The notes: generated by a model from the letters alone, not told the origin. 64,000 bases of DNA from a marine group bacterium Sva0996 bin134 (GCA_002239105.1 MPNQ01000006.1:2595-66594), one strand, 5' to 3'. Positions 1,761-18,425 are shown, counted from the first letter of the stretch. Numbers and translations: made by a program.

Positions 1761-4523
1761 TCAGAGCATCGATTCTTGGACGGGGCCCGTGGCCGCGGCT
1801 TCGGTGGCGTCGGCGCCGGAGCGTAGGTTGGGCCAGGCGGTGATGAGCCCGTTGTAGGCCCCGGCTTCGGCCGCCCACCCCTTGTCGTTGGCCTTCTGAT
1901 ACAGGAGATAGGCGAGCTGGCGAGCTCGCTCGCCGTAGCCGCCCAGAGTGTGCAGCAGTTCAGACGCTTCCGACTCCGACCTCTCCAAAGCGGCAATCAA
2001 ATGCTGCACCGACTCCCAAACCGTACGCCGAAGATCATCAACGGGTGAATAGCCCGGTGGAAGCTCCGAGCGCTCATAGAGCCGGAACTTGCCTGCGCGG
2101 GCCTCGCCGATACCCGATTCCTCGACCCCCGCCAGCGACGTGTTCTTCGCCCGGGCCACGCTGTCGGCATCCCCCGACGGCCCAGGGGTGTACCCATGCT
2201 CAGAGAACCAGGTGAGCGCGAACCGGGTGTCAGCATCCAGTTCCGCATCCTCCCCATCGAGCACCTCGCCCAACACATCGTTGATGATGGCCAACGCCGC
2301 CGACACCGGCATCGCCGACCCATCCGCCTCCACCACCTTGGCATACCGCGAGAACACCTTGATCCCCGGCCCAATAGTGGACTGCGCCATGTCTACCGGG
2401 GCGATGTTGCCGGATTGGAGGATGCGCACCGCGTCGGGAAGCTCCTCGCGCAACGCCGCGATGAACTCGCCGCGCGTGGCGAGCGATGCTTGAGCAGACC
2501 GAGGGCGACAAGCCAGCACAATGGAGGATGCCAAAGCGTTAGTTCCCCGGGCGAGGATTCGCCCCGGAGATTCTGTCCTGATCGGCCAAGTAGCGTTGAC
2601 CTGCAGTCCAGCGTCAAGCACTGCTTGGAGGAATGTGTCCCAACCGGTGGCGCGTACTTCGCCGTCGCGGGTCTCAGTTGCCTTGTAGGCATAGTAGATC
2701 GTAGTTGGCACATCGGCATTCTGGTATTGGACTACTTGGGCCATGAAATCGGCCATACCCGACTCAAAATGCTCCTCAGCCTCTTGCCTTGAACCGGCCC
2801 GATATCGGTTGGCGATCAATTCCTCGGCCTTCGGCGTCAGCAGAGTGGAGCACTCGTCGGGCCACACCCTGAAGAGGTTCTTGCGCAACCAGACGTAGAA
2901 GAAATCTGATAGATCAGCGTAGGAGATGTTGTCGTAATAGGGCGGATCGGTAGAAATGATCGAACCTGCACACTCGCGCACGCGGGCTCGAGCGTCTCGC
3001 TGCACCGCCTCCGCCTCGCCCTGGGCAAGAAAAGCGGCAAGTGATTTGCACACTTTTGACAGGCAAAGTGACCAACTACCCCCAGAATTAGAAAACGGAT
3101 TGGCCTCTGCGAAATCCCAGGTCATAGGAATCGCCTGCCTTGCAAAGGACTCCCGAAGAGCTCCCCGGTCATTCATCCAGGTCACAATGCTTGACCAAAG
3201 GTTTGCGCACTTGTCCACAGCGAATGCCAGATAGGTGACCACAGCGTCCGCGTAGGCTGTTGCTCTGCGACCGCCTTCGTGAAACCGCACGCCGTCGCTG
3301 GCCATGCCCACGGCAAGTGCATCCGAGGCCACCCGCTCAGCCACCTCTCCAAGCAGATCAGAGAATGTGGTCAACGCTGTGAGCTGACGAGGTGTAAACA
3401 GCTTCCACCACTCGTCGAATCCATATACGTAGACGGTGCCTCCAGTCAGCTTCTCTGGGTTCTTGCCATCCGGCTTCCATTCAGGTTCTCCACACTTTGC
3501 GGCTTCCCGTTCTTCAGGCATGACAGGGAGGTAGCTACGGCCGCCAACTCCTTCGGCCACCACAGCCATCAATTGCTGGCTCATACGTCCGGCGCGGCTT
3601 TCAGTCTTGATGTATTCGCCGGAAATCGCCGCTCCAGTGGCGATGCAGGTGCCATTGCCCCGGTTCACAGTCCTTTCGTATGCCGGTTCGCCGCCATCCC
3701 GAATCACGTAGCTGATGGTCTGGGTTTCCCTGTCGATGACCGGCTCAATCCATACCTTCGGCTTGCCCGGACGGTTGGCCAGCGTCCAAGACGCCACCAG
3801 AGGCACATGGCCCGACCAACTCGGATCGGGCGACTCCACGGTTCGGGCCCAGATCCACGCAATTGGTGTCAGCTTTTCACCGCTGGGTCCGGTGGCACTT
3901 GGATAGAGGTGCCCAATGCGCCGCTCAGCCTCATCTCTCATCCAATGGCCGTACGCCTCCACATCGGCTGCCAACCCCTGAGCCCGCTCCCATGTGGTGA
4001 GCGTCTTGTCAATGTCTGGATGAACTGGTGGTACGCCAGCAAAGCGTGGCGGGATCTCGATCATCGCCTTGTTGATCAGCACCGCTACCGGATTCAGGTC
4101 ACCTGCCAGGGCCTTCAACCCAAGTCGTTGAGCTTCCAGAGGAATCGCCCCACCTCCGGCAAAGGGGTCAAGAATCGGCGGGGGCCCATCCGGAAAGCAC
4201 CGGTCAATCTCCACACGTGCCTCAGCAAGCACCTCAGGGTTATCGGAGTTTTCCCACTTCACCAGCCGCTCCAAGATGCGAAACAGCCGCTGCCGTTCAG
4301 CCTCCTGCTCATCAGGCGTCAACGATGTATCCCCCGATGGATCATCCACCAGAGACGCCCAAATCACCGCCCGAGCCGCCGCCAACGGCCGCCGAGCCCA
4401 CCACAAGTGCAATGTCGACGGATGCCCATGCCGAATCGACTTCTCCCTCGCCGCCTCCGCATTGATCACCGCCAACGGCAACGCCACCTCAATCAGCTTC
4501 GGCCGATACGCCTCGCCTGCCAC
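1761..4523 (-). CDS. DUF1156-family (COG1743) DNA methyltransferase, N6-adenine/N4-cytosine type
   Basis: The N-terminus KLIEVALPLAVINAEAAREKSIRHGHPSTLHLWWARRPLAAARAV is the DUF1156 signature. SAM-binding motif I is ILDPFAGGGAIPLEA and catalytic motif IV is STDPPYYDNISY. Length 920 aa, GTG start. Confidence 0.9.
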   Translation of the reverse strand: MAGEAYRPKLIEVALPLAVINAEAAREKSIRHGHPSTLHLWWARRPLAAARAVIWASLVDDPSGDTSLTPDEQEAERQRLFRILERLVKWENSDNPEVLAEARVEIDRCFPDGPPPILDPFAGGGAIPLEAQRLGLKALAGDLNPVAVLINKAMIEIPPRFAGVPPVHPDIDKTLTTWERAQGLAADVEAYGHWMRDEAERRIGHLYPSATGPSGEKLTPIAWIWARTVESPDPSWSGHVPLVASWTLANRPGKPKVWIEPVIDRETQTISYVIRDGGEPAYERTVNRGNGTCIATGAAISGEYIKTESRAGRMSQQLMAVVAEGVGGRSYLPVMPEEREAAKCGEPEWKPDGKNPEKLTGGTVYVYGFDEWWKLFTPRQLTALTTFSDLLGEVAERVASDALAVGMASDGVRFHEGGRRATAYADAVVTYLAFAVDKCANLWSSIVTWMNDRGALRESFARQAIPMTWDFAEANPFSNSGGSWSLCLSKVCKSLAAFLAQGEAEAVQRDARARVRECAGSIISTDPPYYDNISYADLSDFFYVWLRKNLFRVWPDECSTLLTPKAEELIANRYRAGSRQEAEEHFESGMADFMAQVVQYQNADVPTTIYYAYKATETRDGEVRATGWDTFLQAVLDAGLQVNATWPIRTESPGRILARGTNALASSIVLACRPRSAQASLATRGEFIAALREELPDAVRILQSGNIAPVDMAQSTIGPGIKVFSRYAKVVEADGSAMPVSAALAIINDVLGEVLDGEDAELDADTRFALTWFSEHGYTPGPSGDADSVARAKNTSLAGVEESGIGEARAGKFRLYERSELPPGYSPVDDLRRTVWESVQHLIAALERSESEASELLHTLGGYGERARQLAYLLYQKANDKGWAAEAGAYNGLITAWPNLRSGADATEAAATGPVQESML

Positions 4524-4672: not shown

Positions 4673-5089
4673 TTGTCACCCCCGTACTACAACAGCTTGC
4701 CGGCGCAGTTTCAGTTGGAGTTGGAGACAGCTCGCCGAATCGGCCTCACGCCTGTCGAGATTCCCAGCACAGCATTCGATGCCTTGGCGGCCGAAGGTGA
4801 GAGGATGATCTACGTCGTAGCGGGCGGCCAACTGTTGGCGTCCAAGCGACAAGTGGGCGTTGAGCACGTCTCCCATGCGGTGCTCGCCCATGACGGCCCC
4901 GTACAAGCCGCAGGCGAGTTTGAAATCGTGGGTGAAGATGGGGTGCTCGTTGTGTCGGCGCTCAACAACATGAGCGGCCACTACCAGCCAGCCGCAGAAA
5001 GCCTCGAAGTTGCCCAACAGGCGTTCGAAGCCGCTGGAATCCGTATACGTTCGGGTGCTGTTCACCGCTACGATTTTGAGGCACCATGA
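4673..5089 (+). CDS. Hypothetical small protein (138 aa from TTG 4673, or 94 aa from ATG 4805), coupled to the 1470-aa gene
   Basis: Protein-like composition. Its TGA stop overlaps the ATG of the next gene (ATGA at 5086-5089). Conserved-looking core: HVSHAVLAHDGPVQAAGEFEI...LNNMSGHYQP. I cannot assign a family. Confidence 0.55.
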   Translation: MSPPYYNSLPAQFQLELETARRIGLTPVEIPSTAFDALAAEGERMIYVVAGGQLLASKRQVGVEHVSHAVLAHDGPVQAAGEFEIVGEDGVLVVSALNNMSGHYQPAAESLEVAQQAFEAAGIRIRSGAVHRYDFEAP

Positions 5090-8000
5090 CTGCTACTACA
5101 ACGCCGAACCCGCCCGTCGAACCGACACAAGAGATAGTTAACTCCGCGCTGCTGCGCATCGAAGAGGCGACGGACTACTACGCATTCGAGCAGGCATGGA
5201 TCGATGGACTGCGCAGGCTGTCCGCCTCAAGCGCCGGCGACATGAGAGTGCTGCTATTGGCAGAAGCTGGCAGGCGGCTCAATGTGTTTGACGAGGTGGC
5301 GGACGACGTGGCGCGGCGGAGCTGGCTTCGCCAAGTGGTCGAAGAGGTGCGGTTGCGCGGTGACGCAGTCCAGGGTGGAGAGCTTGCGGCAGTGGCCGCC
5401 AAAGAACTCCGAGAGGCCTTTGCTCGCGCCCGTCCAGAGATTGCCGATCTGCGGGCTGCGGTAACTGGCGGGGAGAACTTACAAGAATTCGCTATTCGAT
5501 GTCCCCTCGCTGCGGATCGAGTCCGTGACCTCGGAAGGATTGCTGAAGGGCTGAGCAGCAGCGGACTGCTGGCCCTTGGGCCTGCCGAAGACCACGGTAT
5601 GGCCCGCGACCTCGCGAATGCACTGACCCCTCCGGTTCCACTTATCCCCTCGGTTCCTGAATCCCTGCGGGTGACTCGGGACGAACTGCTGGTGTGGGCG
5701 AAAGCGGGCGGCTCGGACCAAGTGCTGCCCCGCCTGGTTCGCAGCCTCATTGCCGAGACTGAGCCGTCCGCTGAGTGGCTCGATATGCCTGCGGGCACCG
5801 CGGTCACATCGTCCGGTTGGGACGGCATCGTGCGATGCTCACGAGGCAATCGCTACGTGCCAGCCGGTCAGTCGGTCTGGGAGTTGTCAACCAAACAGAA
5901 CGGCTCGCATGAGAAGGCTGGCCGCGACTACGCGAAGCGGGTCACCACATCACCACGTGAAGAACGAACCGATTTGGCTTATGTGGCCGTTGTGTCAGCC
6001 CCGTGGACCAAAGCCCGAGAATTCAAGCAGTACCGCACGGCGAAGGGCGACTTCCGGCAGGTGGAGGCCCTGAACGTCGACAGCTTGGAGGATTGGTTGG
6101 AGTGCGCGCCCGCCACCACGGTATGGCTGCGCGAGCAGATGGGGGCTCCGGTGGCAGGAATCGGCTTGCTCTCGCCATGGTGGTCAAAGTGGTTGGAATC
6201 GACCAGGACACCCCTTGACGAGGGGTTTGTACTGGCAGGACGCGAACAGGCCGCGGGGAACTTGCGTGACCGCTGCCGACAGGGTCGGGGGGTCGTAACC
6301 GTTGGGGGCCGCATCCAGCGCGACGAGATCTTGGCGTTCGTTGCGGCTGCGCTTGTCGCAGGAGACACTTCGGAGGCATCGTTCGGCGACGTGCTGTACG
6401 TGACTACCCACGACACCGCACGTCGTCTGTTCGCTGTGGATGCACTTTCGGGCAACCAGGGGCGCAGCCGTCTGACCCCCGCGCTGACGGTGGTCGTACC
6501 GTCGGCAGAGTTCGCTGAACATCTACCCGCAGGGAGCCCGCATCGAATGATCGTGCCGGTCCCAGGCTCTACACAGGCCGAGATTGTCCTTGATGCCGTC
6601 GACTCAGGACTAGTGGCCCAACGATTGCAAGACAATCGAGTGGAGCTTCATGCGGCACACAAGCTCGGAGGAATGGCTCGAATGAGCCTGATGGCACTCA
6701 GAAGGCACCTCAGCGTCGACCCCGCTTTGCACACGCCGGAATGGGCAAAGGGGCAGGCCAGCAAGATGCTGCGACGGAGCCTGCTGCTCGGCGGCTGGAA
6801 TGAATCCCATGAGGGCGACCGCAAGACCGTAGAGGGGTTCACCGGCCTTCCATCCGATGCGGTTGCCGAGGCTTTGCGACAGTTCGACGCTGGTGATGCC
6901 CCCATGACTACGACCGGCGAACTGGTCCATACCGTTTCACCGGCGGATACTTGGCTGCTGTTGCACGATCAGCTTTCTGCCAGCGACGTGGCGGAATTCG
7001 CGGAGGTCGCCCACGAGGTACTGACTGATGCCGATCCACTGTGGGAGCTAGACAGGGAAGAAGTACTCCGTGCCCAGATTGAGGGAATCCAGGCGAGGTA
7101 CTCGTCTCAGCTCAAACAGGGAGTCGCAACTACTCTTGCACTGGCTGGCAGCAAACCGTCAGCGTCGGGCGGGGCCACTTCGTCGAGTTCGGGAATGGCT
7201 GAGGGCATCACTCGAAGATTGCTCAGATCAGCAATGGACGACGAAAGCCCTAGAACCTGGGTTGCCGTTTCCGACACATTGCCGCTTCTAGCGGAGGCCT
7301 CACCCGAAGCCGTGCTCGAAGCCCTGCGTACCTGCCTCGCCGAGTCGCACGCCTTCGCGCAAGCTATGTTCACCGATGGCGACTCTGACTGGTTCGGCCA
7401 TACCGCTTCGTCGCCCCATTTTCGCATCCTTAATGCTCTGGAAGTCCTCGCGTGGTCGCCTGAGCATCTATTGGCCACCGCGGACGTGCTCTCTCGGCTA
7501 GCCCAGATCGACCCCGGAGGCCGGTACTCGAATCGACCGGATGAGAGCCTCGCCTCAATCATGTGTCCGTGGCTACCCAACACATCGGCAGACTTTGAAG
7601 TTCGTCTCGCAACAGTCCGGATGTTGCGACAATCCCATTCAAATGTCGCCTGGGCGTTGATGCTGTCGATGCTGCCAGAACGCCATGGTGTCCAGCACCC
7701 GAGCGAAATGCCTCGATTCCGCGACTGGAGGCCAGGTCAGCCAGCGGTGACACAGCGAGAGTACGCCGAAACAACCATTGCAGTCGCAGAGATGCTCATT
7801 GAGGACGTCGGTGTGGATTCTGAGCGCTGGACAGCTTTGGTCAGACACATCGCCGATTTACCAGGCGAGGCGCGTCGCAAGGCAATCGCAGGAATCAGCA
7901 GAATTGCTGCAACAGGCGCCGATGAGACATTCAAGTCGAGGATGTGGCCGCTGTTGCGGGACCTAGTGGCTCGTCACCGCCGCAACAGTGAAACCAATTG

Positions 8001-9498
8001 GGCGCTATCGGAAACCGATTTGGAATCGCTAGAACAGGCACAGGACCTTCTTCGTCCGGCTGCGCCTGCTGTCTCCTATGGCCAACTGTTCTCATCGGGC
8101 CTGCTGCAAATCGATGGTGTCGAGGCGGCAAATGGGTACGAGGAGTTCCAAGCGACGTTACGGCCAAAGCAGGCGGAAGCAATAGGGGCAGTCTTTGCCG
8201 GCGGCGGTCTCGAGGCGGTGTTCGAATTCGCCGGTTCGGTGGACGAGCCTCGCCGAGTTGGCTCGGCCCTAGCCAGATACAACTCGGCCCTTGACAAGAA
8301 CATTCTCAGGGCCATGGAAGCCGCATCCGGGGCGGTCACGGAAGTCGCCTTGGGCTATTTCGACCACCGGTTCGCCGAACTGCGATGGGAAGGACTGGAC
8401 GGGCTTATCTCAGAGAACCATGTGTCGCCGAGGGTCGCCGCTGACGTGCTGCGGGCACCGCCGCCGGTGGAGTTGCCCTGGACTCGGGTAGACGCTTGGG
8501 GTGAAGAGGTTGCGACCGAGTACTGGAGTCGGGTGGGCTACTACGACCTCGGGATTCCACAGGAGTTGAGCCAACTGCTCGAGGTGTGTCGTCGACTGCG
8601 GAAGGCGGGACGCCTCGAATTGGCGGGGAACCTGCTCTCGATCCGCTCGACCACCCATGAGTCTCATTCGGACTTCGCCGACGAGGCTGCGGAGTGGCTT
8701 GAGCAGCGGATCAAGCGACCTGATACCGAGACCGAATATAACGACATGACCTACTGGCGATTGGTCTCCCTATTCAAGGTGCTGGACAAGCACCGGGACC
8801 ACCTCGGCACCAGTCGAGTCGCCATCCTTGAGTGGCACTACCACCCGCTCCTGCACCACGACCCAGATTTCAGTGCCCCAAACCTGTATCGGGAGCTGGC
8901 TTCTGACCCCGAACTCTTCGCCCAGTTTGTTGAGTGGGCTTTCAAACCAGCCACCGCTACGCCGGATGAGCGACCTCCGTTGACCGAAGCCCAACAACAG
9001 ATGGCGCTCAGCGCTTACCAACTATTGCGTAGCTGGCCTGCCTCGCAGTTCGTACCCGCACTCGACGACGGCGGCGCGCTGGACGCTGCTTCGCTCCAAG
9101 CTTGGATTGACAGCGCTCGTTCACGTTTGGCCGCAAGTGACCGATCTACCATTGGCGACGAGATGATCGGTGCCGCCCTCGCCGCGTCCCCCAAGGACCC
9201 GGACGGCGAGTGGCCTGGCCTTGCTGTCCGCAACCTACTGGAACGACTGCAATGCGACAGCCTTGAGGGAGGATTCCTAATGGCCGTTCGAAACCAACGC
9301 GGCGTCACGTCCCGCTCCTTGACGGCCGGCGGTGAGCAAGAGCGGCATCTCACCGAGAGCTACAAGGAACAGAGCCGCCGATTCCAGGAATGGCCCCGCA
9401 CAGCGGCCATCTTTAGCAAGCTCGCCCGCAGCTACGAACACGAGGCCCGTCTTCACGACCGCGAAGCCGAGACCGTCCGCCGAGGCCTACCGACATAG
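5086..9498 (+). CDS. Giant (1470 aa) defense-island protein: N-terminal helical extension, variant Mrr/PD-(D/E)xK-like module, long helical-repeat C-terminal region, no P-loop
   Basis: One uninterrupted ORF with protein-like composition throughout. Residues ~200-340 (LPRLVRSLIAET...SSGWDGIVRC...GQSVWELSTKQ...YVAVVSAPW...VEALNVDSLEDWLE) align by eye with the N-terminal nuclease module of the 1384-aa STAND protein (FEELACTLIEE...GDPDGGREG...CAWQAKY...YLVVLPIDL...VEFALIGKHELVKAL). There is no GxxxxGK[ST] anywhere. Confidence 0.75.
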   Translation: MTATTTPNPPVEPTQEIVNSALLRIEEATDYYAFEQAWIDGLRRLSASSAGDMRVLLLAEAGRRLNVFDEVADDVARRSWLRQVVEEVRLRGDAVQGGELAAVAAKELREAFARARPEIADLRAAVTGGENLQEFAIRCPLAADRVRDLGRIAEGLSSSGLLALGPAEDHGMARDLANALTPPVPLIPSVPESLRVTRDELLVWAKAGGSDQVLPRLVRSLIAETEPSAEWLDMPAGTAVTSSGWDGIVRCSRGNRYVPAGQSVWELSTKQNGSHEKAGRDYAKRVTTSPREERTDLAYVAVVSAPWTKAREFKQYRTAKGDFRQVEALNVDSLEDWLECAPATTVWLREQMGAPVAGIGLLSPWWSKWLESTRTPLDEGFVLAGREQAAGNLRDRCRQGRGVVTVGGRIQRDEILAFVAAALVAGDTSEASFGDVLYVTTHDTARRLFAVDALSGNQGRSRLTPALTVVVPSAEFAEHLPAGSPHRMIVPVPGSTQAEIVLDAVDSGLVAQRLQDNRVELHAAHKLGGMARMSLMALRRHLSVDPALHTPEWAKGQASKMLRRSLLLGGWNESHEGDRKTVEGFTGLPSDAVAEALRQFDAGDAPMTTTGELVHTVSPADTWLLLHDQLSASDVAEFAEVAHEVLTDADPLWELDREEVLRAQIEGIQARYSSQLKQGVATTLALAGSKPSASGGATSSSSGMAEGITRRLLRSAMDDESPRTWVAVSDTLPLLAEASPEAVLEALRTCLAESHAFAQAMFTDGDSDWFGHTASSPHFRILNALEVLAWSPEHLLATADVLSRLAQIDPGGRYSNRPDESLASIMCPWLPNTSADFEVRLATVRMLRQSHSNVAWALMLSMLPERHGVQHPSEMPRFRDWRPGQPAVTQREYAETTIAVAEMLIEDVGVDSERWTALVRHIADLPGEARRKAIAGISRIAATGADETFKSRMWPLLRDLVARHRRNSETNWALSETDLESLEQAQDLLRPAAPAVSYGQLFSSGLLQIDGVEAANGYEEFQATLRPKQAEAIGAVFAGGGLEAVFEFAGSVDEPRRVGSALARYNSALDKNILRAMEAASGAVTEVALGYFDHRFAELRWEGLDGLISENHVSPRVAADVLRAPPPVELPWTRVDAWGEEVATEYWSRVGYYDLGIPQELSQLLEVCRRLRKAGRLELAGNLLSIRSTTHESHSDFADEAAEWLEQRIKRPDTETEYNDMTYWRLVSLFKVLDKHRDHLGTSRVAILEWHYHPLLHHDPDFSAPNLYRELASDPELFAQFVEWAFKPATATPDERPPLTEAQQQMALSAYQLLRSWPASQFVPALDDGGALDAASLQAWIDSARSRLAASDRSTIGDEMIGAALAASPKDPDGEWPGLAVRNLLERLQCDSLEGGFLMAVRNQRGVTSRSLTAGGEQERHLTESYKEQSRRFQEWPRTAAIFSKLARSYEHEARLHDREAETVRRGLPT

Positions 9499-9683
9499 CT
9501 CCACCGCACAGTCAGCAAGCACCTAGATGGATTCCTCGGCGGCACCCGACACTCCCACGAAACTACTCCGCTCCACAGTCCCCGCCCTCAATTTCCGGCT
9601 CTCCACAAAAAGCGGGGAAGCTCACTCGGTTGGTACCCAACCTCGGCAAGTCAGCAATGGGGGCGTTTGCTCGTACAGGAGCC

Positions 9684-10967
9684 TCACATGAACATTCGAT
9701 AGGGATAGGCGCTTCGCGGGAGATCCGGCACATTTGCGATGATCCGGGCTAGGCGCTGTGAATAGCGAATCGTAACTGGGACTGGGTCGTACAACGCGTC
9801 GTTGTTCCAGTCCATCTTTGTGAGAGCTAGGAGTTCGGATGCGATGACTTCAAGGGGCCCGCGACCCATCTGCCTGGTAAGGACCAAGGGAGATGGGATA
9901 CTCTTCCCACCCTGAAAGAAGCTGCTCCCTCGTTGTGCTACCGAGGGAGCATTCCCAGCCACCCAAAGCAGTGCTGAAGTTCCCGAGAGGGGGACCATCG
10001 TCCCACGGTGCACGGGATACCCATCGGGCTGGCTCTTGCTCCCTTGTTTCTGCGGTGCCTGAAGCCAGACTCCCCGCCACTTCACGTCCGTGGTCACCTT
10101 CACACACTCAACTTCTTCCACGGCGACCAGTGCATCGGACACGCCGGCAAGCTCTTCCTCCTTGAAGTCCGTAGTCTTGTGTACAGCCACTCGCTTCGGT
10201 ACCTGGCCACCGTTGCGGCGCCTGTACATATCCAGGCTCCTTGCCAGAACAGCCCGCATGTCCGATCGGCTGAGGTATGGATTACGCCGAGCGTCCTCAG
10301 AATTGTCGAGGGGGTCTCGAGCGTCGTATGCCACGAACTGCATACCGCCGCCGTCCGCATCGAACAACTGGGAGCAACAGGTTACGAACCTGGCCTCCTT
10401 CGGGTTGCCCCGGAGAGCATAGGCAAGCCCTATGTAGGCGCTTTCCGAGGGAACCCCTGGAAGCGGAGCTAGTCGCCACGGCGTCCCGCCAGCTTTGACA
10501 TAGAGAGCGATGGCTAACCGCCACGAGAGTGATGCCACATATGGAAAATCAAATGTGCGGTCGTTGATGACCTGCGTAGGCATTGACAGCTCTGCGCCAA
10601 TCGCCTTTAGCTCGTCGTGGGCGTCGAAGCCCTCACCATGGAGTCCAGGTTCCCAACCATCGGGCAAGTGGACAACTGCAACATCGAACTGGTCCCTAAC
10701 ATCTGCCAGTCGCCGGAGATTCTGTGATATTGCTCGGCGGACTAACTCATGGGGAGGTCCATCCCCGAGTTCATCTAGCTGAGATGGCCAGTCCAGCCGT
10801 GTGCATTCGGGGGCTGGAACAAGGGGTACGCCAAAGAGCGGCTCAAACCCAGGATACTCGAGGACGTAGTCGCGGCGATCCGAGGGCCGTTGTGTCTGCC
10901 TCAGGTTGCCGAGGACCTTTCTGCGTCCCTCGCTGCCCGAATCTGGGCCTACGATGGCGACTCGCAC
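9684..10967 (-). CDS. Short prokaryotic Argonaute (MID + PIWI only), predicted catalytically inactive
   Basis: 427 aa. MID 5'-end pocket pattern is H..K/Q/K (FDAHDELKAIG, MPTQVIN, LYVKAGGTPWRL). PIWI core is AYIGLAYAL...RVAVHKTTDF, where active Agos carry GxDV and RDG. The Ago-like C-terminal tail is YPYRMFM. GTG start, with a stop just upstream, so it cannot be longer. Confidence 0.85.
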   Translation of the reverse strand: MRVAIVGPDSGSEGRRKVLGNLRQTQRPSDRRDYVLEYPGFEPLFGVPLVPAPECTRLDWPSQLDELGDGPPHELVRRAISQNLRRLADVRDQFDVAVVHLPDGWEPGLHGEGFDAHDELKAIGAELSMPTQVINDRTFDFPYVASLSWRLAIALYVKAGGTPWRLAPLPGVPSESAYIGLAYALRGNPKEARFVTCCSQLFDADGGGMQFVAYDARDPLDNSEDARRNPYLSRSDMRAVLARSLDMYRRRNGGQVPKRVAVHKTTDFKEEELAGVSDALVAVEEVECVKVTTDVKWRGVWLQAPQKQGSKSQPDGYPVHRGTMVPLSGTSALLWVAGNAPSVAQRGSSFFQGGKSIPSPLVLTRQMGRGPLEVIASELLALTKMDWNNDALYDPVPVTIRYSQRLARIIANVPDLPRSAYPYRMFM

Positions 10968-11412
10968 CGAGTCGGACCAATCAGCCAGGCAAGCTGACCG
11001 GTCCTCTGGCCGAACGTACGCGCGAAAGCGTCGGATGAGATGTGGTCAACCACGAGCCTGGTCCTGAGCGATTGTGGCCTCCTGATCCCCACCGAGTTGC
11101 AGGAGGCCTTCCAACGGCTTGCAAACACCCCTTGAGGAATCGTTCTTGTTCTCCAAGACTCGGTTCAGGTGGTTCATCGGCTGGGCCTGCTTGTAATTAC
11201 GCTTGCGTACTTTGGGACGCTCACTATACCTGCAAAAACTTCAAAGCGCCAGAGCAGTTTGTTGCAACGGATTTCTCCTGCTTGACGGCCCTGCCACAAG
11301 CCCTACCCACATCATCTAGGCCGCATCACGACCCTTCTGGAAGCCAGAGATTCTCAATGCCCCCCACAACCGAAGGTGTGATGCAATCGGCTAACTCTGT
11401 GGAAGTCAATGC

Positions 11413-12072
11413 CTAGTTGGCATCCTCCGTAGGACTTTCAACTGCTTCCAGGAATCGATACATGCCGGACGAGGGGTTGTTGTTCGGGAATTTGGTGTCA
11501 TTGCCCTCATGCCTCTCGGCCAGGAAGCGAGCACGTCGTGCCGCTTCATGGCGGATGTGCATGTACATGGCGCCTTCGAGTCCCTTGCCCTTGGTGCCAT
11601 CGTGTTTTGCTAGCTGACGTTTCGCTGCGTTCGTGGAGAGTGCAGCTGCCTGGTCTTGGAAATGCAACAATTGCCACAGTTCGAAGCAAGGATTCGAAAC
11701 CGCGACTGGGATGCCTAGGTTGTTGGCAAGATCCATGGCCTCGTTCAGCCTGGGGTGTCTTTTCGGCTGCTCGACATCGAAGATGCACCAGACCTCGTCG
11801 ATCTCGCTCCTCTGGTCCTTGGCGTCCCTATGGGCAACGGCGGCCTTTCTCACCAGCGCCAAGGGGTCAAACCCAGCGGCGGTCTCGTCTATCTCGATGG
11901 CGACCGAGGCAATGTCGCGCACCTCGGGCTGTCGCTTCAGTGCTTTGAGGTAGTCGACCTCCGTCCTCTTGCCTTCACAAAACGCAAGGACAGTGCGCCT
12001 GGGAGAGCGGGTGGCAGTCTTGCGGCGTAGCGACTTGTCCTTGCCTTTCCTACCTCGTGTTGATCGAGCCAT
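11413..12072 (-). CDS. rloB: RloB-like (TOPRIM-like) protein
   Basis: VLAFCEGKRTEVDYLKAL and DEVWCIFDVEQ...GIPVAVSNPCFELWQLLHF match the RloB family signature. The ATG shares one nucleotide with the upstream ATPase stop (TGATG). Confidence 0.85.
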   Translation of the reverse strand: MARSTRGRKGKDKSLRRKTATRSPRRTVLAFCEGKRTEVDYLKALKRQPEVRDIASVAIEIDETAAGFDPLALVRKAAVAHRDAKDQRSEIDEVWCIFDVEQPKRHPRLNEAMDLANNLGIPVAVSNPCFELWQLLHFQDQAAALSTNAAKRQLAKHDGTKGKGLEGAMYMHIRHEAARRARFLAERHEGNDTKFPNNNPSSGMYRFLEAVESPTEDAN

Positions 12073-13340
12073 CAGGTCGATTGCTCGGAAAGGCCGAGAG
12101 CTCGACGCACGTCGATGTGATCGATTTCGGGAACTGCACCAAACCGTCCCTGCAAGTAGGCCCGCTCAAGATTCAGCGACTGCCTCACCTTGTCGCCGCC
12201 GAATTCTGCAAGGGCTATGAGGCGAGTTGCGCCGTCGGAACCCTTCTCGGTGAGCCAGACCTCATCGCGATTGAGCGTGCTGAGCAGGGACGTGTCGTGG
12301 GTGGCCAAGATGAGCTGGGCGCCGTGGGGGTTGGTCTGCGGGTCTTGGAACAGTTCGACGAGACGGGCCGACAATCGAGGGTGCAGGCTCGCATCGGCCT
12401 CATCGAACAAGAGAACCTGTCCCTGCTTCAGTGCTTCAAGCGCTGGCCCCAAGAGGCTGAACAGCATTTGAGTGCCTGCCGATTCCTCGTTCGGCCAGAA
12501 CTTGATGGGCTTTTCTCCATCGTGATGCACAAAGACCAGCTGTTCATGGGTGTCACCGGTGGTTCGATCTTCCAATTCGATGATGTCGAAGTCTGTGATC
12601 CCCGGATCAGCAAGACGCAGCAACTCCATAGCCGCCTCACCACGGGTAACGGAACCGAAGACCTGTTGTTCGCGTATGCCCGCGTCTTCAAATTGTGAGT
12701 AAGTGTCCGGAGCAAGGAAGGAAATCCAGATAGGCAGTCGACCCCGTCTCCGATTGAATCCGTGGGCATTGATTTCGGCAATCCGAGAGAGCTTGCGGCT
12801 CGCGGCCTCGATTGCAGGATCGCCTACACGTTTGCCTGCGGAGAGGACCAGCGTCGTTGGGGTAAGAAGCTCCTTGGTCCCCCTAGTGCCGCTCAGTCCG
12901 CGGCGGAAGTGGACCGCCTCGCCTTCCCTCTCGAAGAGCATCCGTCGTCTCCGCTCGGGGTAGCTGCACAAACTTTCGTACAGCACGGCAGAGTCATCGA
13001 CTTCAAGCTGGTAACCATGGCGAACGCCGTCGACAATGAAATCCATGTCGAACGTCGAGGGCTGATCCGGCCCCTTGCCAAAGCGGTGAAGATCTCGAGC
13101 AATGGAGTCCCCTCCTCCTCGTAGGGAGGTAGCCACGGCATACGACATCCAATGGAGAGCATCCAGAACGTTGGACTTGCCTGAGGCATTAGGGCCGTAG
13201 ATGCCGGCGGTCGTCAGGACGCGCTCTGATAAGCGGTCAAAGCCGCGCGTGGCGGCGCGGTCTTCGTCCACGGCAATCATCGACAACTCCACAGGATCGA
13301 GGATCGAGCGGTGATTGGAAACCTGGAATCGCAGCAGCAT
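12072..13340 (-). CDS. AAA_21/ABC-type ATPase, RloA-like partner of RloB
   Basis: Walker A is GIYGPNASGKSNVLDAL, Walker B is VLLFDEADASLHP, and the H-loop is LILATHDTSLL. I prefer the ATG at 13340 (MLLRFQVSNHRSI), preceded by GGGAGGG, over the track's TTG at 13370. Confidence 0.85.
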   Translation of the reverse strand: MLLRFQVSNHRSILDPVELSMIAVDEDRAATRGFDRLSERVLTTAGIYGPNASGKSNVLDALHWMSYAVATSLRGGGDSIARDLHRFGKGPDQPSTFDMDFIVDGVRHGYQLEVDDSAVLYESLCSYPERRRRMLFEREGEAVHFRRGLSGTRGTKELLTPTTLVLSAGKRVGDPAIEAASRKLSRIAEINAHGFNRRRGRLPIWISFLAPDTYSQFEDAGIREQQVFGSVTRGEAAMELLRLADPGITDFDIIELEDRTTGDTHEQLVFVHHDGEKPIKFWPNEESAGTQMLFSLLGPALEALKQGQVLLFDEADASLHPRLSARLVELFQDPQTNPHGAQLILATHDTSLLSTLNRDEVWLTEKGSDGATRLIALAEFGGDKVRQSLNLERAYLQGRFGAVPEIDHIDVRRALGLSEQST

Positions 13341-13429
13341 GGCAGAGCCCTCCCAGCCATACGATAGCAATCTTGTTTCTAATTTCGTCAGATTTATACG
13401 AAATCACCGTGCAGAATGCTGTTTGTTGC

Positions 13430-13678
13430 TCAGAAAGGACCTTGGGAGAGGGTAGCGACGTTGAGCACCAGACCGGTTTGGGCAAAGTGGAAGTAGAAGT
13501 CACGGAAGAGGCCGATGAGGTAACGGACGGTGGGGACCCCATAAGTGGCGAGGTTGTCGAGCCCCCCGGCAAATGGCCTTGCCATTTGGATCGGAAGACG
13601 TCGATGCTGCAGCACGAAATGTCGGGTGCCCTCAGGAGAGGCCTCCATCCGGACACTTCCAATCGCTCTTGCGGGCAA
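13430..13678 (-). pseudogene. Decayed remnant of a DUF3883-type helicase C-terminus (ghost of the 19195-22731 gene's 3' end)
   Basis: The track ORF ends ...GVPTVRYLIGLFRDFYFHFAQTGLVLNVATL. The helicase ends ...EPPTVRYLLDPFRDVTLHFAQPGVPLTVAAL. DNA 13451-13536 vs 19225-19310 shares about 60 of 86 ungapped identities in my hand alignment. The catalytic ExK position reads LQH, and nothing helicase-like lies upstream. Confidence 0.7.
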
Positions 13679-13687
13679 ATTACATGC

Positions 13688-14152
13688 ATGATAGAAGGAG
13701 AGGTCCCATCAGCGGATCAGCTAGCGCCAGGAACTGATTGGACAAATATGCCGCAGACAAAGGACCACGAGAACGTCCACGAAGGCCAGCCGCGTGACTC
13801 CAAGGGCCGCTACGCCTCCTGGGGACTCGCTGGAGATGGGATCAACGAGTCCGCAAAGGTGCTCGAGCACAAACTCGTTAGCGGCTCCACAGCCGAAATC
13901 GTGGCCGCCTCCCAACATCTCATAGCCGCTGTCAACCGCGTGCCAACCCTCACCCCACTCGAAGCCGAACAGATCTCCTCGGTGGCCAAGACCTTCGGAG
14001 CCGGAGCAATCCCAACCGACATCTGGCTTGAACTCGACCGGGCATGCCGCAACGCATCCTCGTCCGCCAGAGACCATCGCGCCACCATCGACAAGAAGCG
14101 CCTAACCGCCCGAGCCCAGCGAGACAGGGCCGAAATCAATAGGCATCAGTAA
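13688..14152 (+). CDS. Hypothetical protein (154 aa from ATG 13688, or 134 aa from ATG 13748)
   Basis: ORF upstream of and co-oriented with the STAND gene. The 5' part of the track ORF (13373-13687) is antisense to the helicase ghost and unlikely to be coding. No recognisable domain. Confidence 0.4.
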   Translation: MIEGEVPSADQLAPGTDWTNMPQTKDHENVHEGQPRDSKGRYASWGLAGDGINESAKVLEHKLVSGSTAEIVAASQHLIAAVNRVPTLTPLEAEQISSVAKTFGAGAIPTDIWLELDRACRNASSSARDHRATIDKKRLTARAQRDRAEINRHQ

Positions 14153-14270: not shown

Positions 14271-17200
14271 ATGCCAATGAGCCCCCGATTGCCCGACATC
14301 GACTTCAGGCGCATCCGACCCTACGGTTCTCCCGCATCGCGGGATGGTGGGTTCGAGGAGTTGGCCTGCACCCTGATCGAGGAGGCGGTCTGCGAATGGC
14401 CCGAAGGCACCGAGTTCGCCCGCTTTGGCGATCCCGACGGGGGCCGCGAGGGCAGGGCGACTCTGCCCGACGGCACGGTCTGTGCTTGGCAGGCCAAGTA
14501 CCTGTTCCTCTTCGACGCGTCGGCAACCAGCCAAATCGAGCGGTCGGTCGAACGGGTGCTGCAAAACGAGCCGATGTTGTGCCGGTATCTGGTGGTGCTC
14601 CCAATCGACCTGCCGGCAGGCGACACGCCAGGGCGCACATCGGCCCGTTATCGCTGGGAAAACAAGGTCGGGGAATGGCGGGAATCGGCACTAGCATCAG
14701 GCAGGTCGGTTGAGTTTGCGCTCATTGGTAAGCATGAACTTGTTAAGGCGCTGACAAGCCCCGGGCAGGCAGGGCGACTGCGCTACTGGTTCGACGAATC
14801 ATTCATGGATGGTCCCTGGTTCCAGTACCGGCTCGACGAGGCCATCGAGAAGGCGGGTCCTCGTTACTCCCCCGATGTCCATATCGGAGTGGAGGCAGCA
14901 CAAGTCTTGGAGGGGCTGGGCCGCACTGATCGGTTCACAGCAGAGTGGCGAGAATATTTGGCAGTTCTCCGGGAGAGTCGCCCGGGGCACTGGACAGCGC
15001 CCGAAGGCGACACGGGAGAGCTTGCTGAAGCGCTGTCTGCCTGCAAAGCCGCTATTGAAGAGGTCGACAGCGCGATCAGCTCGATCATTTTGGCACTCGG
15101 CGGCTACGGAGATCTGCCCGCTCCGGACAACGAGATTCAAGTTGCCCAAGAGGAGATTTGGAACATACTCGGGTTGCTGCGTGCCAACCATCTGTCGAAG
15201 ACCGGCTTCTACGTGGGCGACGCGGCCTTCTTGCACCGTGATGCGACTCGGGCGTTAGGCGCGCTCGACAACCTGGCAGCACTCGCTGGCTCGATGTCGA
15301 CCGGTGCGGCGCGGGTAGGCAAGGCGCTGATTGCTGGCAAAGCGGGGACAGGAAAGACCCATCTGTTCTGCGATATCGCCAAGGTGCGGGTTGAGACCGG
15401 GTGCCCCACCGTTTTGGTCATGGGCCAGGACTTCGATCAGCGGGCACCTCACCTCCAGATCCCCGAGTTGACGTCATTCGATGGGTCTGCCGAGGAGGAG
15501 GTGGAGGCGCTGGCTGCGGCTGCTGAGGCGTCGGGCGTCGTGGGGCTGCTGATGATCGATGCTTTGAACGAAAGTGAGCGCCCTGAGGGGTGGAATGACA
15601 ATTTGCGAGTGCTCCAGCGGATTGTCGCCCGGCACAAGCAGGTTGCCTTGGCGGTGAGCTGCCGCTCCGAGTTCGTGTCTGAGGCGGTGGGTGATACCAC
15701 CATGCCGAATATCGAGCACGAAGGCTTCGGCGAGGCCACTGAAGCAGCGGTCGTGCGGTATGCCCAGCACTACGACATTGGGTCGGTGAGCTTTCCGGTG
15801 CTGAATTCCGAGTTCTCCAATCCGCTGTTCCTAAGGCTGGCTTGCGAAGCGCTGGCAACGCTGGGCCGCGACAGTTTCCATCTGGACTCTGCCGGACTCA
15901 CCACGGTCTGCGACGCTTTCCTCGAAGCAGTCAACGACCGTCTCTCCCACCGCGAACGCTGCGACTACGACCCGGCGCGCCGCCTCGTACAGCAGGCGGT
16001 TCGCGTCCTGGCCGAAGCCACTGAAAGTCCGCCCATCGAGTGGGAGGCAGCGGAACAACTGCTCCAAGACATCCACCCCTCTGCTGGATGGTCCAAGTCT
16101 CTTCTTAAGGGCCTGATCGATGAGGGAGTCCTCATCAAGACTCCAGCCGGGGTCGGCTTCGGCTACCAGCGACTCGGTGACCTCGCCCGAGCCGCTCTGC
16201 ACTCCGAGAAAACCGACGCGGAAATCAGGCAATGGGCAACGAGCCTCGGCCGCCGAAGGTGGAGCCACAGGGGAGTTCTCGGAGCGCTGGCCGTCATGCT
16301 CCCCGAGACAAGAGGCGTAGAGCTTATCCAAACCCTCGCCGATGACGAGGGAAAGGTCAGCCGCGATCAACTCGATCTGTTCGTGGACAGCCTGGTCCTG
16401 CGGTCCGCGGGGGCAGTCAGCACAATCACCGTCGGGATTGTAAGGCAATTGCTAGGCAACGATGACCTGCGGGAGCTGCTATTCGACCAGCTTGTGCGGC
16501 TGTCCTGCGTTCCGGGCCATGCTCTCAATGCCGATCTGTTCCATGCATGGCTGATGGAACAAGATCTGGCCGAGCGCGACGCGCAATGGTCCCTCTTCCT
16601 CGTCGACCAGACGGAGTACCAGACACCGGTGCGGCGCCTGATCAACTGGGCACGAGATAACAGCGGCGGTGCCAAACCGGAGGTCAGGCGGCTAGCGGGG
16701 GTGATGCTCGGATGGATGCTGACAACCTCCGACAACCGCGTCAGAGACCAGGCGACTAAGGCCCTAGTCGCGCTCTTCGAGCCAGCACCCGACACCGCCG
16801 CAGAAGTGCTGCGGTCATTTCGTGGGGTAGACGACCCCTATGTGCTTGAGCGCCTCGCCGCAGCTGCCTGTGGAGCCGCGCTGCGCTCGTCCGACTCCAC
16901 AGCCCACCACAAGCTCGCCAACGGAACCACTGACATGTTCGCTGACGGGTGGCCCGCCCACCTGCTCACACGCGACTACGGCCACCGCATATTTCGGCTC
17001 GCAGTGAGCACGGGCTGGAATCCGCCTGGGGGAGGCAGTCCAGACGGGCATCCATACGGCGGACCGCCCTACGGGGCAGAGCTTCCTGTCCCCACCCGTA
17101 CCACTAGCCAGATCGAAACCATGGCCGGACCACCCAACTACCGCTACGGGTCAATATGGCGCTCCATAGATGATGGCGATTTCGGGAGATACATTTTGGC

Positions 17201-18425
17201 ACCGGCCCTCGGCCACTTCGATCTCGACCGCCAAGGGGATCTGATCGACTTGGCGGAGCGAACGGTGTTCGACCGGGTTGTCGAACTCGGATGGACCCCG
17301 GAGGTATTCCAAAAGGTTGACAGATCGCTGTCTTCGACATCGGGAAGAGATCACGCCGTAGAGCGTGTCGGCAAGAAATACCAGCGGATCGCGTTCTACG
17401 AACTACTGGGACGCCTAGCCGATAACTACGCAATACGAGAATGGGGCGACAGCCCAGCGATGCCGTACAGCCACGCCAAACAGTTGGTCTACCGCGACAT
17501 CGACCCCACTGTCCTCACCCGAAAGCCCGAGACCGACCCACCAACACCGTGGTTCTCGCCGGCACAGGCAGCCTTCGATCCGAAAGAGGCCGGGAAAGAG
17601 CCGACCGAAATCGAAGGGACTCCCGACCCCCTCGACTTGATTGCCGCGACGGACCAGAACAGCGAATCGTGGCTCGTCCTCGAAACATACGCCGACTGGA
17701 AAGAACCACTGGCTCCCGAGCAGAAGGCGCTCCGCCCGCCCGAAGTCTGGGTCCGCCTGCAAATCTGCGGCTACCTGATCCCAGAGGACAAGCTCACCGA
17801 AATCCGCGAGTGGGCCGAGGGTAAAGACTGGAGCGAATTCGAGATACTCAAATCGCCTGACGTCTACAACGCACTTCTAGCGTCTCACCCTGACGACCCG
17901 GCATGGGCACAAGCCTCCACCGAACCCGACCGCTGGCTGCGTCAATCGGAGCAACTGCCATGCGATCTGTTCCCTGCCGCAGCCCAATACGCCGGAACCG
18001 GAACCGACAGAGATTATTCTGCCGCCCAAGAAACCATCGGATACGTCCCAAGCGGTCGGCTCCACAACCTGCTCCGCCTCACCCGCTGCGGCGACTTCGA
18101 GTGGAAGAACCAACAGGGCGTCACCATCGCAAGAGATCCGTCCGTCACCGTCGGCGGACCCGCCGCACTGCTCGCGCACCGCGACGAAACAGTCGAGCGG
18201 CTTTCAGAAGCAGGGCTGACGATCTTTTGGACTGCCCTAGCTGCAAAAGACCTCATACAGCAGGATTTTGGCCAGCCCGCCAACCCTCGATGGGTTACCG
18301 CCAGCGCAGCATACGCCCTTGACAACAGCGACGTGGTCCTCTTGTATGCCACTGCCCGGTCCTATGTGGGCCCGACAGAGACCGACAAACAGTCTTGGAG
18401 CGACATACTGAGAGACCGTGGCTAG
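14271..18425 (+). CDS. STAND-type P-loop NTPase with N-terminal Mrr-like (D...QxK) restriction-endonuclease domain and HEAT-like/helical C-terminal region (Avs-like architecture)
   Basis: Nuclease motifs: GFEELACTLIEE, FGDPDGGREG, CAWQAKYLF. Walker A is KALIAGKAGTGKTHLFCD and Walker B is VGLLMIDALNESE. A HEAT-like repeat is DNRVRDQATKALVALFE...DDPYVLERLAAAACGAAL. Length 1384 aa. Confidence 0.85.
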   Translation: MPMSPRLPDIDFRRIRPYGSPASRDGGFEELACTLIEEAVCEWPEGTEFARFGDPDGGREGRATLPDGTVCAWQAKYLFLFDASATSQIERSVERVLQNEPMLCRYLVVLPIDLPAGDTPGRTSARYRWENKVGEWRESALASGRSVEFALIGKHELVKALTSPGQAGRLRYWFDESFMDGPWFQYRLDEAIEKAGPRYSPDVHIGVEAAQVLEGLGRTDRFTAEWREYLAVLRESRPGHWTAPEGDTGELAEALSACKAAIEEVDSAISSIILALGGYGDLPAPDNEIQVAQEEIWNILGLLRANHLSKTGFYVGDAAFLHRDATRALGALDNLAALAGSMSTGAARVGKALIAGKAGTGKTHLFCDIAKVRVETGCPTVLVMGQDFDQRAPHLQIPELTSFDGSAEEEVEALAAAAEASGVVGLLMIDALNESERPEGWNDNLRVLQRIVARHKQVALAVSCRSEFVSEAVGDTTMPNIEHEGFGEATEAAVVRYAQHYDIGSVSFPVLNSEFSNPLFLRLACEALATLGRDSFHLDSAGLTTVCDAFLEAVNDRLSHRERCDYDPARRLVQQAVRVLAEATESPPIEWEAAEQLLQDIHPSAGWSKSLLKGLIDEGVLIKTPAGVGFGYQRLGDLARAALHSEKTDAEIRQWATSLGRRRWSHRGVLGALAVMLPETRGVELIQTLADDEGKVSRDQLDLFVDSLVLRSAGAVSTITVGIVRQLLGNDDLRELLFDQLVRLSCVPGHALNADLFHAWLMEQDLAERDAQWSLFLVDQTEYQTPVRRLINWARDNSGGAKPEVRRLAGVMLGWMLTTSDNRVRDQATKALVALFEPAPDTAAEVLRSFRGVDDPYVLERLAAAACGAALRSSDSTAHHKLANGTTDMFADGWPAHLLTRDYGHRIFRLAVSTGWNPPGGGSPDGHPYGGPPYGAELPVPTRTTSQIETMAGPPNYRYGSIWRSIDDGDFGRYILAPALGHFDLDRQGDLIDLAERTVFDRVVELGWTPEVFQKVDRSLSSTSGRDHAVERVGKKYQRIAFYELLGRLADNYAIREWGDSPAMPYSHAKQLVYRDIDPTVLTRKPETDPPTPWFSPAQAAFDPKEAGKEPTEIEGTPDPLDLIAATDQNSESWLVLETYADWKEPLAPEQKALRPPEVWVRLQICGYLIPEDKLTEIREWAEGKDWSEFEILKSPDVYNALLASHPDDPAWAQASTEPDRWLRQSEQLPCDLFPAAAQYAGTGTDRDYSAAQETIGYVPSGRLHNLLRLTRCGDFEWKNQQGVTIARDPSVTVGGPAALLAHRDETVERLSEAGLTIFWTALAAKDLIQQDFGQPANPRWVTASAAYALDNSDVVLLYATARSYVGPTETDKQSWSDILRDRG

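Follow-up and report, generated by a model that had tools for sequence, protein, structure and literature searches.

The 64,000-nucleotide stretch of the marine group bacterium Sva0996 bin134 analysed here (GCA_002239105.1, MPNQ01000006.1:2595-66594; hereafter the window) carries on its minus strand an open reading frame (ORF) for a short prokaryotic Argonaute (pAgo), behind an ATPase gene and an RloB-like gene. Our results indicate that this locus is very probably a recently inactivated SIR2-APAZ/short-pAgo operon of the SPARSA (S1B) type, i.e., the decayed form of a known system rather than a new one that pairs an Argonaute with an ATPase. The ancestral operon would have been composed of a 619-aa SIR2-APAZ gene overlapping a 483-aa pAgo gene by 4 nt, as in close relatives, and one deletion of about 1.94 kb joined the 26th codon of SIR2-APAZ to the 54th of pAgo in a different reading frame. 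The effector/APAZ partner, the pAgo start codon with its GGAG ribosome-binding site and the conserved N-terminal 53-56 residues of MID were lost by this event, and the ATPase/RloB pair, an AbiL system, would have adjoined the operon already before it. Positions are given in window numbering (Table 1), related loci are labelled L001 and so on, and homologous proteins P0001 and so on. Assignment to S1B was made from the PADLOC models, together with the finding that SIR2-APAZ is a separate gene in the relatives.

The truncated pAgo gene and the deletion

The 427-codon ORF was present as first described, and all of the motifs then quoted were found in its translation, namely DAHDELKAIG, PTQVIN and YVKAGGTPWRL of the MID pocket together with GLAY and HKT. 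The latter two were read directly at the expected positions of PIWI, and neither varies within the family alignment; all short pAgos have been stated to be catalytically inactive (10.1101/2021.12.14.472599). The Pfam scan of the 427-aa product gave no match, and the PADLOC model pAgo_I (class I short pAgo) matched with an E value of 7e-179 over model positions 46-457 of 457, model positions 1-45 being unmatched by the window ORF. Among the matches listed, the closest homologues were 96%, 93%, 91% and 90% identical across the whole query, and P0001, a protein of 483 aa, showed 96% identity with 100% query coverage. Nearly all of the 120 closest homologues listed were about 480 aa long, those of the closest clade 483 aa, and the 483-aa pAgos behind SIR2-APAZ genes shared 88-96% identity with the window pAgo. 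The window ORF aligned with the homologues from residue 57, and the homology of the pAgo DNA extended to about 10976 (codon 54). The 56 N-terminal residues of the homologues, MSATARPG.LAPYTPL.EP.L.FSS....D.HPLRGL...GPYSKNSLA.YSDS, which precede the VRVAIVGP of the window, are absent from the window ORF, and 11 of these 56 positions were at least 90% conserved in an alignment of 15 pAgo homologues (A2). In the GsSir2/Ago structure, MID comprises residues 1-218 and begins with N-terminal beta-hairpins (PMC10781750), and the 91%-identical relative P0003 aligned with the GsAgo chain 8in8_C (E 3e-96) in such a way that P0003 residue 10 faced chain residue 8. Because the homologues are longer, the start of the PADLOC model is unmatched and the conserved 56 residues are missing, the pAgo ORF is N-terminally truncated and lacks part of the MID fold. 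The initial annotation, which took the product for MID and PIWI only, was right in calling it a short pAgo, and the product is not a complete MID and PIWI protein since its first 56 residues are missing.

The signals for translation are also altered. Intact relatives carry a GGAG 7-8 nt 5' of the pAgo ATG, and no Shine-Dalgarno sequence was found before the GTG at 10967 of the window, where the preceding sequence is TGGCTGATTGGTCCGACTCG. Gene callers on identical DNA picked starts giving pAgo products of 427, 299 or 181 aa, because no credible start site is available. The 299- and 181-aa calls on the sister contigs (L085-L087, L090) were considered as extra lesions and rejected, as their DNA is the same as that of the window and the choice of start alone differs. 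Two short homologues, P0116 (426 aa) and P0047 (422 aa), were considered as a naturally truncated functional form and were rejected as well; each follows a complete SIR2_2 gene, with some 57 uncalled codons between this gene and the called pAgo start, and their lengths reflect miscalled or frameshifted starts.

The absence of an APAZ gene at the locus, already noted in the initial annotation, was confirmed, and the spacer upstream of pAgo was found to hold a SIR2-APAZ stub of 26 codons. By blastn, window 11055-10976 matched L002 8143-8222, where the gene for the 619-aa SIR2-APAZ protein has its first 78 nt, and window 10976-9678 matched L002 10160-11458, which is pAgo from nt 160 (codon 54) through the stop; the 1937 bp of L002 in between (8223-10159, about 1.94 kb) have no counterpart in the window. 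The stub translation, VVDHISSDAFARTFGQRTGQLAWLIG, agrees with the N-terminus of the L001 SIR2 protein at 25 of 26 residues. After it the stub frame runs on into the pAgo sequence in a different reading frame (PTRCESPS) until the stop codon TAG 10952-10950, the stub ORF having 34 codons in all and ending 15 nt beyond GTG 10967. When the whole 64-kb window was searched by tblastn with SIR2-APAZ, the stub was the sole match (E 2e-8), and no second SIR2-APAZ gene that could act as a trans-encoded partner was found there. The window was aligned at the DNA level with both parental sites from L001 and from L002 (five sequences). The heptamer CTGGCTG is present at both parental sites, 6-13 nt 5' of the break, whereas no more than 4 nt of microhomology exist at the break point. 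Because the stub of the partner gene is retained and a conserved pAgo segment is lost, these data demonstrate a deletion from an intact operon and not an ancestral APAZ-less state, and in comparison with intact relatives the deletion is a single clean event of about 1.94 kb. An origin mediated by an insertion sequence (IS) was also considered, as L001 carries an IS inside SIR2-APAZ, yet neither breakpoint of the window coincides with an IS end and this origin is unsupported.

The related loci were collected by a pattern scan with one genome per species, which gave 80 genome loci. Full-length SIR2-APAZ lies directly 5' of pAgo in 74 of the 80, and in tblastn searches with SIR2-APAZ the partner ended immediately 5' of pAgo wherever room exists. 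Among the remaining loci, some are cut by a contig end (L016, L064, L068, L075 and L084) and others hold SIR2-APAZ copies that were damaged independently (L012, L057 and L074). In L012 (2715-5995) a 1.4-kb insertion is located at SIR2-APAZ codon ~478, and L011, a chromosome-level assembly of the same isolate, is intact; in L057 (5549-6001) just the C-terminal 150 aa of the partner are left; and L074 (4073-5622) shows SIR2-APAZ frameshifts that could be long-read sequencing errors. In L002 and L003, two Acidimicrobiia metagenome-assembled genomes (MAGs) with a 91% identical pAgo, a 619-aa SIR2_2 gene overlaps the 483-aa pAgo gene by 4 nt, and the 619-aa protein of L002 matched PADLOC Aga_SIR2-PNTD1-PNTD2 (SIR2-APAZ) with an E value of 3e-191. 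L008, a sponge-associated MAG with a 90% identical pAgo, carries AbiLi, AbiLii, an intact SIR2-APAZ gene, a 483-aa pAgo gene and the convergent 1470-aa and 138-aa genes, and its gene order is exactly that of the window before the deletion. The same order is found in L001 (pAgo 96% identical), where an IS element (DDE_Tnp_1_4) is inserted in SIR2-APAZ at codon ~200 (L001 6446-10004).

The deletion allele is real. The 1470-aa protein of the window was found on 18 contigs, and the six places examined, which come from six samples (three ENA assemblies, ERZ27241798, ERZ27241788 and ERZ27241795; two JGI metagenomes, 3300027327 and 3300002151; and one NCBI MAG, GCA_026710925.1), showed the gene spacing of the window and 0 differences from it along the 1729 bp between the pAgo stop and RloB. 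The APAZ-less form is restricted to this one near-clonal, sequence-identical population. The pairwise ratio of non-synonymous to synonymous divergence (dN/dS) between the window and L001 pAgo was 0.095 (dS 0.18), that of other close pairs 0.06-0.08, and when the substitutions were polarised with L002 and L008 there were 6 non-synonymous and 17 synonymous changes on the window branch and 6 and 19 on that of L001. Neutral decay would give about three non-synonymous changes per synonymous change. Because the window branch is far from this ratio, the deletion would be recent, purifying selection having apparently acted on pAgo for most of the branch, and the recency of the event would also explain why the 427-codon frame is still open. 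Four of the six window-specific replacements (P92L, R131L, L303M and V476A) fall at positions otherwise constant among the five relatives compared, a pattern which is suggestive and not significant.

Function of the remnant and alternative readings

Sir2 and Ago are both needed for protection and form a stable heterodimer (10.1101/2021.12.14.472599; PMC10781750), in which APAZ and Sir2 wrap the pAgo with buried interfaces of ~1400 and ~1500 Å^2 (PMC10781750). In a system of this kind the two proteins form an obligate heterodimer, whose pAgo half uses an RNA guide to sense the DNA of an invader, whereupon the Sir2 half depletes NAD+. As compared to known SPARSA systems, e.g., GsSir2/Ago of Geobacter sulfurreducens (PDB 8in8 and related entries), the window pAgo belongs to the same clade, that of the class I, Sir2-associated short pAgos, and has the MID pocket motifs and the GLAY and HKT of the family, which are presumably non-catalytic, and in its relatives the canonical 619-aa SIR2-APAZ gene is still present and shares 4 nt with the start of pAgo. 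The window differs in keeping 26 SIR2-APAZ codons only, with no complete SIR2-APAZ upstream of or fused to the pAgo, and in that the pAgo is without its first 56 residues, its own start codon and its ribosome-binding site. As it stands, the remnant would be unable to form the heterodimer that defines the system. Because both subunits are required, part of MID is lost and the translation signals are lost, the gene remnant most probably makes no functional protein, and, with its Sir2 effector deleted, the locus is expected to show neither guide-dependent NAD+ depletion nor defence.

Several observations weigh against inactivation. There is no clear signature of relaxed selection, which fits a very recent deletion and would also fit continued selection on the truncated protein, and the remaining 427 codons are free of stops and frameshifts. 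Transcription of the remnant may persist, as the operon has kept its upstream region and the start codon of SIR2, and the 34-codon stub ORF ends so shortly past GTG 10967 that weak re-initiation is conceivable.

The truncated pAgo might be expressed at a low level and have an effector-free activity without any partner, such as sequestration of guides or targets, or regulation. The motifs of the 5'-end pocket in MID and the entire PIWI domain are preserved, the retained SIR2 start and the overlap of the stub ORF with GTG 10967 would allow re-initiation, and no excess of non-synonymous change was seen in the window pAgo. We nevertheless consider this very unlikely: short pAgos of this type have been purified and act as heterodimers (PMC10781750), defence depends on both subunits (10.1101/2021.12.14.472599), the 56 residues that were lost are conserved and part of the MID fold, the GTG is not preceded by a Shine-Dalgarno sequence, and four of the six window-specific replacements affect positions constant in the five relatives compared.

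The initial annotation left two options, a stranded orphan or a pAgo with a non-APAZ partner, either the ATPase/TOPRIM pair or the convergent 1470-aa protein. The first was borne out more strongly than claimed, the pAgo itself being 5'-truncated and the stub of its partner still attached. The second, a functional truncated pAgo that has switched to the AbiL pair or the 1470-aa protein as effector, is highly improbable. It could draw on the common orientation of pAgo and AbiL, on the adjacency of AbiL and SPARSA in L001 and L008 (same orientation) and in L020/L021 (divergent), and on the intact 427-codon frame with its low dN/dS. Yet AbiL accompanies SIR2-APAZ or its remnants in every AbiL-adjacent locus and never replaces the partner, about 70 SPARSA loci are without AbiL, the pair matches complete stand-alone AbiL models, and L008 shows the intact arrangement. 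The pAgo would moreover have had to dispense with a conserved N-terminal segment, a start codon and a ribosome-binding site, and the APAZ-less architecture is limited to the single near-clonal population; no recurrent association of an APAZ-less pAgo with AbiL-like genes in diverged lineages was seen among the 80 related loci. The 1470-aa family occurs without pAgo in all four distant loci inspected. When profiles for APAZ and SIR2-APAZ (70 sequences) were compared by hhalign with the 1470-aa, 138-aa, 43-aa, 259-aa, AbiLi and AbiLii products, no APAZ-like neighbour was found (probability at most 2.5%). It had been foreseen that homologous loci might show the pAgo clade always with a canonical APAZ gene and never with RloB/AAA_21; the former is what we found, and the latter does not hold, as AbiL recurs in L001, L008 and L020/L021. 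The particular form in which ribosomes re-initiate past the 34-codon SIR2 stub to make the truncated pAgo, and this protein is retained for cooperation with the AbiL ATPase/TOPRIM proteins, which if true would amount to a guide-directed AbiL, has in our estimate only a very slight chance of being correct.

That the deletion is an assembly artefact of a true genome with an intact operon might be suspected from the metagenome-type assemblies and from the 7-nt repeat that is all the parental sites share. It is effectively excluded, as such a repeat is far too short for assembly-graph collapse, and the allele recurs identically across the junction region in six samples from three sources, with the 1470-aa protein on 18 contigs.

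The upstream region and the neighbouring defence genes

The upstream region of the inactivated SPARSA operon is still in place and can be aligned with the spacers between RloB and SIR2 in L001 and L008. The distances first reported were confirmed, i.e., 185 bp between pAgo and the 1470-aa gene downstream (9499-9683) and 445 bp between pAgo and RloB upstream (10968-11412), the latter with a GC content of 0.546 against ~0.59-0.61 around it. The 43-codon ORF noted in this spacer (11046-11177, minus strand) was confirmed and considered as a gene, and its frame is stopped after 19 codons in L008; it is probably not a gene. A conserved non-coding block, CCAAAGTACGCnnGCGTAATTACAAGCAGG, is located at about 11216-11186, in the stretch ~11186-11228 of the window (minus strand), ~130-160 nt 5' of the SIR2-APAZ start, and is common to L001, L008 and L002. 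The block holds two small palindromes, TACGC..GCGTA and GTAATTAC, and a TAnnnT motif lies 5' of it, with the sequence TATAGT in the window and TATGGT in both L001 and L008. The block is a possible promoter or operator of SPARSA, kept though the operon was destroyed. The Rfam search of the spacer found no known RNA, with only a chance-level match at E 0.6, and no consensus promoters or terminators were found in the spacer.

Table 1. Coordinates of the SPARSA remnant and of the surrounding defence genes in the window
Feature	Position	Strand	Description
Host defence island	1-22731		Hma system split by inserted cassettes
HmaC (DUF499 ATPase)	below 836	-	PADLOC E 5e-52
HmaB (DUF1156 methylase)	1761-4523	-	PADLOC E 0
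Two-gene cassette	4673-9498	+	138-aa ORF overlapping 1470-aa ORF; convergent; no Pfam, PADLOC or NCBIfam match
5'-truncated short pAgo ORF	9684-10967	-	427 codons, residues 57-483 of 483-aa homologues; PADLOC pAgo_I
Deletion junction	10976-10981		SIR2-APAZ codon 26 joined to pAgo codon 54; five-way DNA alignment and blastn
SIR2-APAZ stub	10976-11053	-	GTG start 11053, first 26 codons VVDHISSDAFARTFGQRTGQLAWLIG; blastn, tblastn
Retained upstream region of former SPARSA operon	11054-11412	-	aligns with RloB-SIR2 spacers of L001 and L008
AbiLii (RloB-like, 219 aa)	11413-12072	-	intact; Pfam RloB E 4e-35; PADLOC AbiLii E 4e-24
AbiLi (AAA_21 ABC-type ATPase)	12072-13370	-	intact; Pfam AAA_21 E 4e-33; PADLOC AbiLi E 3.5e-89
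Avs2	14271-18425	+	PADLOC E 2e-291
HmaA (SNF2 helicase)	19195-22731	-	PADLOC E 0

The RloB and AAA_21 genes that had been recognised on the pAgo strand were confirmed by Pfam and are identified as AbiL. AbiLi has 432 codons if TTG 13370 is taken as its start and 422 aa if ATG 13340 is, its translation contains the Walker A motif GPNASGKS and the Walker B motif LLFDEAD, and its stop overlaps the AbiLii start by one base (12072), so that the RloB-like AbiLii stands immediately downstream of the ABC-type ATPase in the same operon. Both genes are intact and match their PADLOC and Pfam models, nothing unusual was seen in them, and as judged from these matches the pair constitutes a complete abortive-infection system, an independent neighbour of the SPARSA remnant. 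AbiL adjoins SPARSA in at least two distinct arrangements, co-oriented and upstream in L008 (1828-3778) and L001 (4150-6095), and divergently in L020/L021 (1995-3931). SIR2-APAZ or its remnants are always present in these four loci, and ~70 other SPARSA loci, mostly proteobacterial, have no AbiL; the adjacency in Acidimicrobiia is probably defence-island clustering. Between AbiLi and Avs2, the ORFs 13373-14152 (plus strand) and 13237-13689 (minus strand) have no family match, and in the same interval of sister contigs the gene callers give a 72-aa gene on the minus strand and a 134-aa gene on the plus strand.

The 1470-aa protein and its 138-aa companion found no match in the Pfam, PADLOC and NCBIfam scans. 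The family of the larger protein counts 156 homologues among 5.8 billion proteins, all of ~1450-1500 aa, mostly from sponge-associated Acidimicrobiia (Ca. Poriferisodalis), and the small overlapping ORF is ~60-160 aa long (window, L001, L008 and L091-L094). The gene stands without pAgo in each of the distant loci (L091-L094) and is an independent cassette outside the pAgo system; its defence-island contexts include Hma genes, type I-U cas genes, a reverse transcriptase gene and PemK. The earlier suggestion of a nuclease-like protein or partner was pursued with an AlphaFold2 model of residues 1-470, which was mediocre (pLDDT 62), and Foldseek against the PDB gave nothing at E <=1e-3, with only a faint similarity of this region to PD-(D/E)xK nucleases such as EndoMS (E 0.2); the suggestion was rejected. 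The model shows a confident helical domain at 11-180 followed by an alpha-beta-beta-beta-alpha-beta unit at ~198-331, in which D246, E266 and K277 are invariant; this unit is faintly PD-(D/E)xK-like, with no significant PDB match. The two genes are a candidate uncharacterised defence gene pair.

All of these genes lie in or beside an Hma system, of which HmaA, HmaB and HmaC are all present with very strong PADLOC matches. The gap between HmaA and HmaB holds the 138-aa and 1470-aa pair, the SPARSA remnant, AbiL and Avs2. L002 and L003 carry an intact SPARSA and an HTH_66 and PIN_10 pair in the same helicase-methylase gap, and in L093 the gap holds PemK and the 1470-aa gene. Because the window, L002/L003 and L093 carry different cassettes there, the gap behaves as an integration hotspot for variable defence cassettes. 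SPARSA stands between HmaA and HmaB in the window as in L002/L003, and Hma is only the genomic setting of the remnant.

Annotation and turnover of SPARSA operons

The correct label for the locus is SPARSA pseudogene remnant, i.e., a SIR2-APAZ stub and a 5'-truncated pAgo, beside an intact AbiL, rather than orphan pAgo or novel pAgo system. Beyond correct annotation the significance is small. The case is a caution that, before a short pAgo is taken to be APAZ-less, one should look for a truncated N-terminus and for remnants of the partner gene nearby. Among the loci compared here, the SPARSA operons of sponge-associated Acidimicrobiia have been repeatedly disrupted, by deletion in the window, by an IS in L001 and by an insertion in L012, which is consistent with the turnover of costly abortive-infection systems in defence islands.

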